Shown here piece after piece: positions 36,201 through 39,200 of a stretch of 64,000 nt of DNA (positions within the stretch are counted from its first letter, which is position 1; every line of letters begins with the position of its first letter). Location: NCBI RefSeq assembly GCF_017348835.2, contig NZ_CP071375.1. The stretch is one strand, 5' to 3'. The DNA is from Escherichia coli. Its GTDB lineage: Bacteria; Pseudomonadota; Gammaproteobacteria; Enterobacterales; Enterobacteriaceae. The position numbers were made by a program.

Positions 36201-39200
36201 GCTCTGAGCCAGTGGCGGACGTAACAACTACTATTGCTGAGATTTTAATGGATTGAGGAGCAAGAAGTGGGATTAAAGAAAATCGTTATGTTGACTTTTT
36301 GGGTCGGTTTTGTTGCGGGATGCACACCTTTACACCCTTCAGATTGCCACAAAACTACTGCTACAGGTAGTTGCAGTTCAGGACGCTGGGATGATCAGGA
36401 TGAATGGGGGGCGCAAGCGCGGGGAATCAGAGCTGCAATTAATGCCAAACTTGATGAGCCGCATAACTGGAAAGGGAAAAAATGCAGGTTGCATATGGAA
36501 TTCTCTCAGGATGGCACGGCGTTAAAAATATCTACCAGTAACGGTGATAAAGCCTATTGCGAAGCGATAAAGTCCGCAGCTCATAAAGCCAAATTTCCGG
36601 CCTTCAACAATCCGGAAGTCTACAGAGATTTTCAGAAATCTGGCTTTGACATGCGAGGTTAGCTCTTCAATTACTATATCTCATTCATAGCAAACTGACA
36701 GATTTGATGATGTTCTATATACGAAACCTGTGATGTCAAGTCTGAGCTAATACAAATAAACATAATATCAGAGAAATACATTTTATTAGCTCGCTACGGC
36801 GAGCTTTTTATATTGCATCGTCTCCAGCATATATATCAATTAAGGCTCTGATTGATGTGTCTGAAAGCCTACACATAATAACTATGCCATCCGTTCCGTG
36901 CGGAGGTGAGGCTATGAAATCCATGGACAAAATTTCAACAGGCATTGCCTACGGCACCTCCGCAGGCAGTGCTGGCTACTGGTTTTTACAGTTGCTCGAT
37001 AGAGTAACTCCGTCACAGTGGGCTGCAATCGGTGTGCTGGGTAGTCTGGTATTTGGCCTGCTGACGTACCTGACAAACCTTTATTTCAAGATTAAAGAAG
37101 ATAAGCGCAAGGCTGCGAGAGGTGAATAATGCCTCCATCATTACGAAAAGTCGTTGCTGCTGCTATTGGTGGCGGAGCAATTGCTATAGCATCAGTGTTA
37201 ATCACTGGCCCAAGTGGTAACGATGGTCTGGAAGGTGTCAGCTACATACCATACAAAGATATTGTTGGTGTATGGACTGTATGTCACGGGCATACAGGAA
37301 AAGACATCATGCTCGGTAAAACGTATACCAAAGCAGAATGCAAAACACTCTTGAATAAAGACCTTGCCACTGTCGCCAGACAAATTAACCCGTACATCAA
37401 AGTCGATATACCGGAAACAACGCGCGGCGCTCTTTACTCATTCGTTTACAACGTGGGTGCTGGCAATTTCAGAACATCGACGCTTCTTCGCAAAATAAAC
37501 CAGGGCGATATCAAAGGCGCATGTGATCAGCTACGTCGCTGGACATATGCTGGCGGTAAGCAATGGAAAGGTCTCATGACTCGTCGTGAGATTGAGCGTG
37601 AAATCTGTTTGTGGGGTCAGCAATGAACAGAGTAACCGCGATTATCTCCGCTCTGGTTATCTGCATCATCGTCTGCCTGTCATGGGCTGTTAATCATTAC
37701 CGTGATAACGCCATTACCTACAAAGCCCAGCGCGACAAAAATGCCAGAGAACTGAAGCTGGCGAACTCGACAATTACTGACATGCAGGTGCGCCAGCGTG
37801 ATGTTGCTGCGCTCGATGCAAAATACACGAAGGAGTTAGCTGATGCGAAAGCTGAAAATGATGCTCTGCGTGATGATGTTGCCGCTGGTCGTCGTCGGTT
37901 GCACATCAAAGCAGTCTGTCAGTCAGTGCGTGAAGCCACCACCGCCTCCGGCGTGGATAATGCAGCCTCCCCCCGACTGGCAGACACCGCTGAACGGGAT
38001 TATTTCACCCTCCGGGAACGACTGGTAATGATGCAGGCCCAACTTGAAGGTGCTCAGCAATACATAACCGAGCAGTGTTTAAAGTAAAATCTTAACTACA
38101 ATATGATTCATTTTGATGATTGTTTCATAAGGAACAGTGAAGTAAGATCTAAGAGGAGTTAAATTTTATACAGTATAATCATAATATTGCAGCAAGGTGG
38201 TTATAATTGAAAGAATATTTAGATATGAATACATCTCATGTAAGAGTTGTTACTCATATGTGTGGGTTCCTGGTTTGGCTCTATAGTCTTTCAATGTTGC
38301 CACCAATGGTTGTAGCATTGTTTTATAAAGAAAAAAGCCTGTTCGTTTTCTTTATAACTTTCGTTATATTTTTTTGCATTGGTGGCGGAGCGTGGTATAC
38401 AACTAAGAAATCTGGCATTCAATTACGTACCCGTGATGGGTTTATTATAATTGTAATGTTTTGGATTTTGTTTTCTGTTATTAGTGCATTCCCTTTATGG
38501 ATTGACTCAGAACTTAATTTAACGTTCATTGATGCTCTGTTTGAAGGGGTTTCTGGAATAACAACAACAGGAGCAACTGTAATTGATGATGTTAGTTCAT
38601 TACCTCGGGCATATTTGTACTATCGGTCACAGTTAAATTTTATAGGTGGTTTAGGAGTTATTGTTCTGGCGGTTGCTGTATTGCCATTATTGGGTATTGG
38701 TGGTGCAAAGCTTTATCAGTCAGAAATGCCGGGGCCATTTAAGGATGACAAACTCACTCCCCGCCTGGCCGATACGTCACGGACACTGTGGATAACTTAT
38801 TCTTTATTAGGTATTGCTTGTATTGTCTGTTATAGACTTGCAGGAATGCCTTTGTTTGATGCTATTTGTCACGGGATTTCCACAGTTTCGCTTGGTGGTT
38901 TCTCAACTCATAGCGAGAGTATCGGATATTTTAATAACTATTTGGTTGAGCTGGTGGCTGGTTCTTTTTCCCTGCTATCGGCTTTCAACTTCACTCTTTG
39001 GTATATTGTTATTAGCAGGAAAACGATAAAACCTTTAATCAGAGATATTGAACTTCGTTTCTTTCTGTTAATAGCCTTAGGGGTGATCATTGTTACCTCT
39101 TTCCAGGTCTGGCATATAGGTATGTATGACTTGCATGGAAGTTTTATTCATTCGTTTTTTCTTGCCAGCTCCATGCTCACTGATAATGGTTTAGCTACGC

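Follow-up and report, generated by a model that had tools for sequence, protein, structure and literature searches.

The described systems closest to the locus reported here are phage 21 (OL657228), the essD-rrrD(ybcS)-rzpD/rzoD cassette of the defective prophage DLP12 of Escherichia coli K-12, and the Rac-type elements inserted at ttcA. That a lysis cassette might be retained in a defective prophage for a purpose of the host has already been published for DLP12, whose cassette is reported to be transcribed, to modulate OMV production and to respond to stress (PMC7918800); its induction by SOS and enrofloxacin and an effect on vesicles have also been reported (PMC12287860). Among the Rac-like elements, KingRac is an active phage of 46.8 kb at ttcA that gives particles and lysis on mitomycin C (PMC6731689; Frazao et al. 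2019), and the Rac prophage of K-12 keeps of its lysis region only ydaW'-rzpR'-rzoR-trkG. A search of the literature for any account of a Rac lysis cassette (Rac prophage with trkG and endolysin or holin) returned nothing specific.

Here we analyse a window of 64,000 nucleotides from E. coli (contig NZ_CP071375.1, assembly GCF_017348835.2), which carries at 36914-38087, on the plus strand, the four lysis genes S, R, Rz and Rz1, every one of them in an open frame. Our results indicate that this cassette is very probably the native late-operon lysis module, of the phage-21/DLP12 type, of a Rac-family lambdoid prophage at ttcA.

Results

Anatomy of the lysis cassette

The four genes are the following:
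36914..37129, plus strand: S, class II pinholin gene with a dual start (71 aa; Pfam Phage_holin_2_1 and alignment with phage 21)
37129..37626, plus strand: R, SAR endolysin (GH24 lysozyme; 165 aa; PF00959 Phage_lysozyme, 154.8 bits)
37623..38087, plus strand: Rz, i-spanin (154 aa; Pfam Phage_lysis PF03245, 178.2 bits; phrog_13 over the full length)
37843..38028, plus strand: Rz1, o-spanin lipoprotein (61 aa, in the +1 frame inside Rz; Pfam Rz1, 69.5 bits)

A sequence-only reading of the window had described an intact pinholin/SAR-endolysin/spanin cassette of the phage 21 type with open and coupled reading frames, and the evidence gathered here agrees on both counts. The Pfam scores (120.9 bits for S, 154.8 for R, 178.2 for Rz and 69.5 for Rz1) are all far over the gathering threshold, the proteins are 90% (S), 98% (R), 92% (Rz) and 95% (Rz1) identical to those of phage 21, and the genes overlap at their junctions, with TAATG at S/R and ATGA at R/Rz. 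Inactivating substitutions relative to the phage 21 proteins had been named as grounds for dropping the reading; the comparison found no catalytic or structural residue changed. The homology to characterised proteins is near-identical, and the sequence anatomy of the cassette is real and not a chance pattern, and the cassette looks fully functional, with a predicted competence for lysis. It is also ordinary, already annotated and already known, the RefSeq names essD, rrrD, rzpD and rzoD being on its genes; no NCBIfam model matched S, Rz, Rz1 or Q.

S matches PF04971 (Bacteriophage P21 holin S) over residues 5-67 at 120.9 bits against a cutoff of 26. Its N-terminus, MKSMDK, contains the MKSM dual start that had been noticed at the outset: M1 at 36914 begins the S71 antiholin and M4 at 36923 the S68 holin, exactly as the S21-71/S21-68 starts are annotated in phage 21. 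In S21, the first transmembrane domain (TMD1) can leave the membrane and the second (TMD2) is strongly hydrophobic. The only stretch of S over a Kyte-Doolittle threshold of 1.2 comprises residues 33-58, where G40, G43 and G48 conserve the small-residue spacing expected of TMD2, and residues 8-27, rich in Gly, Ala and Ser and under 1.2, fit a weakly hydrophobic TMD1. Against S21, S has substitutions at 7 of its 71 positions, among them L47F and F49L in TMD2, and each of its residues is found in phage 21 or in phage PhiR11_1 (the host given in the latter's record is K-12 MG1655). The exact protein is present on at least 1000 contigs, and its accession, WP_000839565.1, is common to PE164 and to the complete prophage of strain A11 (EssD). 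Folding of the translation-initiation region of S gave no signal of an sdi-like structure (z = -0.51).

R is identical at 162 of 165 positions both to PDB 3HDE (R21) and to 4ZPU (RrrD), with E values of about 1e-110, and has the catalytic triad E35/D44/T50 in the arrangement Glu-8aa-Asp-5aa-Thr. The N-terminal SAR helix attributed to it is borne out by residues 7-27, which are 57% Gly/Ala/Ser/Thr and the same as in R21 except for A8V; this weakly hydrophobic, Gly/Ala-rich composition is that of a SAR helix, from which the release behaviour of the enzyme is predicted. R also has A73T, and neither A8V nor A73T occurs in the three phage sequences compared. The exact R protein is found on at least 1000 contigs, and PE164 and A11 have the RrrD accession WP_001135310.1 in common.

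Rz has a hydrophobic N-terminal stretch (residues 1-27) and two cysteines, Cys99 and Cys152, and is 92% identical to the Rz of phage 21 and 96% to that of record vB_EcoS-683R6. Rz1 lies within it at a frame offset of 1, with its lipobox (LVVVGC, Cys20) and proline-rich tract (10 Pro in the 42-residue mature part) intact as had been proposed, and with a further Cys29. The C-terminus of Rz1, SGNDW, is of the Rac type and identical in vB_EcoS-683R6; the protein is annotated as rzoD (WP_001228696.1) and its exact sequence occurs on at least 1000 contigs. Rz, by contrast, is known as an exact match from 5 contigs only and carries a lineage-specific patch, S49/T50/V56, whose 81 nt match rzpD alleles of 39 further records at 100% identity. 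Early decay was considered as the cause of this patch and dropped, since the patch is an existing rzpD allele, which points to a recombination mosaic.

The region between Q and the cassette

Upstream of S, we recognised the following features:
34101..34643, plus strand: Q-like late antiterminator gene, intact (180 aa; Pfam DUF1133, 355.6 bits, full length)
34721..34753, plus strand: tR'-like intrinsic-terminator hairpin about 80 nt 3' of Q (strong; fold -19.7 kcal/mol, z = -5.76, with a U-run behind it)
35688..36116, plus strand: TolA C-terminal-domain lipoprotein gene 1, cargo (moron) between Q and S (Pfam TolA, 82.6 bits; phrog_5772, function unknown)
36267..36662, plus strand: TolA C-terminal-domain lipoprotein gene 2 (Pfam TolA, 54.6 bits; phrog_5772; WP_001348108.1; PGAP start 36288)
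36788..36805, plus strand: second terminator-like hairpin, directly 5' of S (terminator scan; fold -13.0 kcal/mol, z = -5.38)

The Q-like protein matches phrog_753 ('anti-termination protein Q-like', 4.3e-79), has a weak similarity to Phage_antitermQ, and its gene occupies the same position as in the complete prophage of A11. Over the aligned 300 nt that follow Q (the Q-pR'-tR' region), the prophages of A11 and EC2 are identical to the window, and the first 60 nt or so are conserved in record vB_EcoS-683R6; the late promoter pR' presumably lies within the conserved 34644-34720. The first TolA-like protein has an N-terminal lipobox, IIGC, in its translation.

Between 32700 and 38300, a sigma-70 scan called 16 sites where shuffled sequences gave 11.8 +/- 3.2, and no late promoter could be assigned. 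One weak sigma-70-like match (9/12) lies at 36852-36879, between the second terminator and S; we rejected it as evidence of a promoter, the total of the scan being no higher than expected from the shuffles, although it makes transcription of the cassette independently of Q conceivable.

A Rac-type prophage with two large deletions

The cassette belongs to a prophage at ttcA with intR/xisR, recT, ydaU/V and trkG, according to the annotation of the 100% identical PE164 locus and to a BLAST comparison that is collinear with K-12 Rac. Three features describe its present state:
26459..26460, no strand: immunity-deletion junction (BLAST against K-12 Rac: K-12 locus positions 6950-12209 absent)
38225..39682, plus strand: trkG, K+ transporter cargo directly 3' of the cassette and marker of the Rac context (annotation; collinear with K-12 Rac)
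39820..41751, plus strand: in-frame ParB(1-141)-'tail fibre fusion ORF, with the virion-deletion junction at 40241/40242

At 26459/26460 the prophage has lost the rest of recE, racC, kilR, sieB, racR, ydaS, ydaT and the start of ydaU, a stretch that includes the immunity region, the early promoters and the racR-ydaS intergenic region. The virion genes had been taken to be missing, and they are: terminase, portal, capsid and tail genes, all visible in A11, are absent, and between trkG and sitD there remain only the ParB'-'tail-fibre fusion and the tail-fibre assembly gene tfa. The alignment across the junction is identical to the ParB of A11 for 422 nt and then diverges. The ParB breakpoint (nt 421) is recurrent, the sequence there being ...GCCCGGTA followed, across the break, by C; no phage record begins at this point, as one might if it were a phage genome end (cos/pac).

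The same prophage carries the defence pair iteA/iteS. Together with the TolA-like genes, trkG and sitABCD, iteAS flanks the cassette with cargo genes that may be useful.

Distribution among E. coli genomes

All genome counts refer to 5426 complete E. coli genomes. The virion-deletion junction is found as a single piece in 2 of them, and the immunity-deletion junction, at a coverage of at least 80%, in 4. The segment from S to trkG is at least 80% covered in 799, roughly one in seven, and 596 genomes contain the S21-type cassette together with the ParB-GREB1 segment that precedes terminase; most copies of the cassette linked to trkG thus still have that segment beside them. Loci matching the cassette number a median of 3 per genome, and PE164 has 5.

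In strain A11, ttcA is occupied by a Rac-type prophage that appears complete, in which the same Q-TolA-TolA-S-R-Rz-trkG block continues with ParB, terminase, portal, capsid and tail genes. The cassette is also intact in the independently degraded Rac remnants of EC2, GENOMIC23-002 and cM2a. The EC2 prophage has 5 pseudogenes in about 46 kb, a density that predicts about 0.13 hits over the 1.17 kb of the cassette, so that an undamaged copy in EC2 has no significance. S and R have been deleted or replaced in K-12 Rac and in other Rac remnants, a module boundary lies exactly at the R/Rz border, and the Rz-trkG-ParB block is also found in a lambda-type prophage adjoining the bio operon. Record vB_EcoS-683R6 was rejected as proof of a viable phage, since it and its relatives are 'partial genome' deposits, none of which starts at a natural end; the complete prophage of A11 and the published KingRac phage took its place in the comparison.

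Discussion

Taking the explanation as a whole, we think it highly likely that two large deletions disabled this prophage very recently, one taking out the immunity region with the early promoters and the other, from ParB to the tail fibre, all virion genes, and that the cassette is intact because there has been too little time for decay. This account draws on what can be observed directly, namely the gene content, how nearly identical the proteins are to characterised ones, the two deletion junctions and how rarely they occur, and the identity to complete prophages. With one junction present in two genomes and the other in four, decay would have had almost no time, and, the particle genes having been lost so recently, survival of the cassette needs no special explanation. 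The cassette is probably transcriptionally silent in this lineage, as the early promoter of Q is gone and terminators shield the lysis genes; it would therefore cost little to carry, and its presence may well be neutral. The intact copies in the other Rac remnants fit neutrality, and would also fit selection.

If expressed, the cassette would presumably act as its relatives do. Transcription would depend on antitermination by Q from a promoter just 3' of its gene, through at least two strong terminators. The S68 pinholin would build up in the inner membrane, held back by S71, the antiholin translated from the upstream start, until triggering opened small pinholes and collapsed the membrane potential; the membrane-tethered SAR endolysin would then be freed and refold to an active muramidase, and the Rz/Rz1 spanin complex would fuse or disrupt the outer membrane. 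It is possible to ask whether open frames conceal a cassette that has lost this competence through its substitutions with respect to phage 21, that is, the seven in S (with L47F and F49L in TMD2), the three in R (among them A8V and A73T) and the three-residue patch in an Rz known from five contigs. We regard such inactivation as highly improbable, as every residue of S is seen in phage 21 or PhiR11_1, the S and R alleles are very common and also occur in complete prophages, E35/D44/T50 are intact, and the Rz patch corresponds to the rzpD alleles of 39 records.

The sequence-only reading had further proposed that a lysis module without a virion is retained for another purpose, and for this claim we find no support. 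Its fullest form is domestication, in which selection would keep the cassette for low-level, host-controlled expression serving peptidoglycan turnover, OMV control, release of biofilm matrix and DNA, or toxin release. The DLP12 cassette, with its published effects on vesicles, is of the same family (its RrrD is the near-identical relative of R), several Rac remnants that decayed independently still have the cassette whole, and Q and the region after it are intact in the window. However, deletions found in only two to four genomes make intactness uninformative about selection, the protein alleles do not differ from those of complete prophages, K-12 Rac and others have dispensed with S and R, the value for EC2 carries no significance, and with several cassette loci per genome any host role would be redundant. 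Domestication would be recognised by purifying selection acting long after the loss of phage functions, and the deletions offer no time depth from which selection could be inferred. We therefore consider it unlikely; nothing in the sequence of the window argues for a host role, although one of the kind already proposed for DLP12 (PMC7918800) could still exist. It is also hardly probable, in our view, that the Q-pR'-lysis unit, silent on its own, is activated when a lambdoid phage, superinfecting or resident in the same cell, provides a compatible Q or early transcription, and that it then supplies this phage with lysis functions and material for recombination or else lyses the cell prematurely in a manner resembling abortive infection. 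Such trans-activation would agree with the loss of the repressor and early promoters next to an intact Q, post-Q region and cassette, with the dedicated defence pair in the same prophage, and with the mosaic exchange evident in the rzpD-like Rz patch, at the R/Rz module boundary and in the Rz-trkG-ParB block by the bio operon, but it is purely inferential, and the same arrangement in complete prophages is that of their own late operon. A further reading, in which a remnant without repressor or virion keeps its intact Q/late-promoter/lysis unit so as to kill the cell or release its contents under certain conditions, seems very unlikely as well. Such a device would stay silent until Q activity or read-through arrived from a superinfecting lambdoid phage or stress, and would then cause premature, abortive-infection-like lysis alongside IteAS, or a controlled release of vesicles or contents.

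As found, the cassette matters little: it is a textbook module of the phage-21/DLP12 type, annotated in RefSeq and linked to trkG in about one in seven complete genomes, and for DLP12 the co-option of such modules by the host has already been both proposed and put to the test. It does, nonetheless, provide a caution, in that open frames in a crippled prophage are no sign of selection where the deletions that crippled it date back no further than a clone. Should a host or defence role of the orphaned Q-lysis unit turn out to be true, it would be a second domestication of a lysis module after that of DLP12.

Compared with known systems, the cassette shares with phage 21 its four genes and their order, the overlapping junctions, the MKSM dual start, the catalytic triad and the SAR helix. 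The homology stops at about 38012, and roughly the final 20 codons of Rz, like the final 4 residues of Rz1, belong to the Rac (rzpR/rzoR) type; in addition, the regulator is a DUF1133-type Q instead of Q21, two TolA-like genes and the STnc100 sRNA stand where phage 21 has tRNA genes, and trkG is found downstream in place of bor. DLP12 carries the same cassette family, with the same RefSeq gene names, in a defective lambdoid prophage, but it differs in prophage, integration site, Q type and spanin C-termini, and it is old and widely fixed, whereas the remnant state described here is found in only two to four genomes. The Rac prophage of K-12 occupies the same ttcA site, is collinear with the window and 97-99.9% identical over int-recE', ydaU-ydaW and Rz-trkG-ynaK, and has an identical Rz1 type. 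It lacks, however, the counterpart of window positions 28453-37642 (what remains of ydaW, then DUF977, iteAS, nin-like genes, Q, both TolA-like genes, S, R and the initial 20 nt of Rz), so that the contrast drawn earlier with K-12, where the Rz/Rz1 end is all that is left, holds; the prophage of the window, in turn, is without the immunity region, and its virion deletion is a different one. There is also a likeness to the prophage of A11, which has an identical Q-to-trkG block and shares both the S and R proteins and the insertion site, and to KingRac, which we liken to it here by its site and induction behaviour (PMC6731689); unlike the prophage of the window, both keep their immunity, replication, terminase, head and tail genes.

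The lysis cassette

Every anatomical statement of the sequence-only reading proved correct against the ORFs, Pfam, structures and phage 21 alignments, as did its coordinates. The cassette comprises four genes (from the ORF list and raw sequence):

36914-37129, + strand: S, pinholin type, 71 codons, start MKSMDK with the second Met at codon 4 (36923)
37129-37626, + strand: R, endolysin, 165 codons
37623-38087, + strand: Rz, 154 codons
37843-38028, + strand: Rz1, 61 codons, entirely within Rz in the +1 frame

In the raw sequence the S stop overlaps the R start as TAATG, and the R stop overlaps the Rz start as ATGA. 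All four products match the expected Pfam families far over threshold ('Bacteriophage P21 holin S', Phage_lysozyme, 'Bacteriophage Rz lysis protein' and 'Lipoprotein Rz1 precursor'), Rz scoring 178 bits in an open frame. R shares 162 of its 165 residues with the phage 21 endolysin of crystal structure 3HDE, and likewise with K-12 RrrD (4ZPU). Catalytic substitutions relative to phage 21, which the reading had named as grounds against it, were looked for in R, and E35, D44 and T50 are all kept. Gly, Ala, Ser and Thr make up 57% of its N-terminal segment, the composition expected of a signal-arrest-release helix. Rz has a hydrophobic anchor at the N-terminus, Cys99 and Cys152, while Rz1 has the lipobox LVVVGC with Cys20, a further Cys29, and prolines at 10 of 42 mature residues.

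Identity to the annotated phage 21 genome is 90% for S, 98% for R, 92% for Rz and 95% for Rz1. By sequence comparison, no residue of S lacks a counterpart in phage 21 or PhiR11_1, a phage recorded with K-12 MG1655 as its host. S, R and Rz1 each occur in exactly this form on at least 1000 contigs, and Rz on 5, because of three substitutions (S49, T50 and V56). Decay is ruled out as their origin: they lie in an 81-nt stretch that matches rzpD alleles of 39 other records at 100% identity and is therefore a recombination patch.

RefSeq names the genes essD, rrrD, rzpD ('lysis protein') and rzoD. Of the two spanin genes, PGAP annotates only rzoD in strain PE164, leaving out the enclosing Rz (37623-38087), and does the reverse in sister genomes, where Rz is called and Rz1 is not; this mismatch is an inconsistency in the handling of embedded genes and no biological difference.

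A defective Rac-type prophage

The window is E. coli chromosome, 100% identical to PE164, and the cassette is part of a Rac-type prophage at ttcA, with the following order:

Left part: intR, xisR, rcbA, IS3, ralR, recT, truncated recE
Joined directly to recE': truncated ydaU, ydaV, DUF1627, DUF977
Next: defence pair iteA/iteS, DUF1367, DUF1364
Then: Q-like antiterminator, two genes with a TolA C-terminal domain, S, R, Rz/Rz1, trkG
Right end: ParB'-'tail-fibre fusion, tfa, sitDCB'A

By BLAST, K-12 Rac lacks window positions 28453-37642, including Q, S, R and the first 20 nt of Rz, which bears out the contrast first drawn with the rzpR/rzoR remnants of K-12. The K-12 immunity region (racC, kilR, sieB, racR, ydaS, ydaT) is in turn missing from the window, with the junction at 26459/26460 (BLAST). 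ParB equals that of a complete prophage over 422 nt and is followed by a tail-fibre gene from junction 40241/40242; no terminase, portal, capsid or tail genes are present in the window's prophage. With the immunity region and the virion genes deleted, the prophage has at least two defects, and the IS3 insertion comes on top of these.

Because of the virion deletion, 39820-41751 is an in-frame fusion of 643 codons, in which ParB residues 1-141 run on into the C-terminal portion of a tail-fibre protein; PGAP breaks this fusion into two pseudogene fragments. Further right, sitABCD (42548-45732) stands in place of the Rac pinR-ynaE end, with sitB truncated (a 167-aa ORF at 44256-44759, annotated as a pseudogene without N-terminus). 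The IS3-family element (22968-24277), with an ALIL frameshift pseudoknot, lies between rcbA and ralR and adjoins an intact RalA antitoxin sRNA (22754-22932). The anti-phage pair iteA (ATPase) and iteS (S8 peptidase), at 29405-32798, is prophage cargo, followed by a bidirectional terminator with a 15-bp stem (32806-32839); in other Rac-type prophages this place is taken by other cargo, for example AbiH or hokD.

The interval between Q and S has its own contents:

35391-35577, + strand: STnc100 sRNA (Rfam 86.6 bits, gathering score 47)

Related records have tRNA-Thr and tRNA-Gly genes in this interval instead. Two paralogous small lipoproteins (35688-36116 and 36267-36662; lipoboxes IIGC and VAGC) consist of a TolA C-terminal domain and belong to phrog_5772, for which no function is given. 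Their genes are positioned like late-operon cargo between Q and the holin, and a possible role of the products is interference with colicins or phages that depend on Tol.

At least three independent deletions cut ParB after the same ...TTTTGCCCGGTA. The breakpoint lies at 40228-40242 in the window (ParB nt ~421), and at 12327 and 9341 in the comparison loci L007 and L010; ParB ends ...GTTTTGCCCGGTA, and the right-hand partners are a tail fibre (the window's lineage), the major capsid gene (strain GENOMIC23-002) and sitA (strains LA3 and EC15). In a spread sample of genomes truncated inside a 301-nt ParB segment, four of nine rows stop at exactly this base. It may mark a site-specific cut, such as a packaging one (cos/pac); a search for phage records beginning at it returned none.

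Spread and retention of the cassette

The cassette is not special to this remnant. Strain A11 carries an apparently complete Rac-type prophage, also at ttcA and with no pseudogene flags, which has immunity and replication genes, the shared DUF1367-DUF1364-Q-TolA-TolA-S-R-Rz-trkG block and, after trkG, ParB, a GREB1-like gene, small and large terminase, portal, capsid, tail and tail-tip genes. The EssD and RrrD RefSeq protein accessions are identical in A11 and PE164, and the window, A11 and strain EC2 share the 300 nt after Q without a difference. KingRac, an active Rac-like phage at ttcA, gives particles and lysis on mitomycin C (PMC6731689).

Of 5426 complete E. coli genomes, 799 cover the stretch from S to trkG to at least 80%, and a few of these have holins/endolysins of other types in front of the same Rz-trkG; the R/Rz border (37623) is an exact mosaic module boundary at the Rz start. 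What precedes this Rz-trkG in other Rac-type prophages is another GH24 lysozyme, or a set of class II holin, YdfR and lysozyme, and a lambda-type prophage adjoining the bio operon has lambda S and a GH104 endolysin 5' of the same Rz1-trkG-ParB block. With a chimeric query, made of the cassette and the ParB-GREB1 segment found ahead of terminase, 596 genomes reached a coverage of at least 80%, so most trkG-linked copies are in prophages still extending toward virion genes.

The proposal that an intact cassette was retained here for another purpose finds no support. The window's ParB'-tail-fibre junction occurs as a single piece in only 2 genomes, PE164 and F2_81 (both pig-derived), and 4 genomes cover the recE'-ydaU' junction to 80% or more; the crippled state is thus clone-young, so young that open frames are uninformative on selection, and the S and R alleles are those of A11. 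The cassette is also kept in other, independently degraded Rac remnants: EC2 (five pseudogenes), GENOMIC23-002 (a ParB-to-capsid deletion) and cM2a (a deletion reaching tfaR). Such persistence is the neutral prediction for a target of 1.17 kb in about 46 kb, and S and R are lost or exchanged in K-12 and others. Loci matching the cassette number a median of three per E. coli genome and five in PE164, which would make any host function redundant.

Lysis and its regulation

The cassette most likely works by the established mechanism of phage 21. By analogy, S68 would build up harmlessly, held back by S71, until its triggering opened pinholes and depolarised the membrane; the SAR endolysin would then exit the membrane and turn active, and the Rz/Rz1 spanin would remove the outer membrane. 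The sequence appears compatible with competence for each step, and nothing in it contradicts this.

Regulation follows the lambdoid late-operon design. The Q-like gene is intact (DUF1133; phrog_753), a strong terminator hairpin lies ~80 nt 3' of it (-19.7 kcal/mol, z = -5.8), and a second hairpin lies immediately upstream of S; a promoter scan around the cassette yielded none assignable from sequence. By comparison with K-12 Rac, the deletion at 26459/26460 took racR, ydaS/ydaT and the intergenic early-promoter region, and Q is therefore left without its normal source of transcription. The late operon is probably silent, which would also explain why the cell tolerates a lethal cassette in a prophage that has no repressor.

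Comparison with known systems

In DLP12, a defective K-12 prophage, the lysis module has already been proposed to be domesticated (PMC7918800), with reported roles in peptidoglycan turnover, OMV control and biofilm, and with stress- or SOS-responsive expression (PMC7918800; PMC12287860). The retention hypothesis is thus not new, nor is it backed by anything specific to this locus. The cassette is a real feature, correctly described and of a known kind; among characterised systems, the phage 21 cassette and the DLP12 operon are nearest to it.
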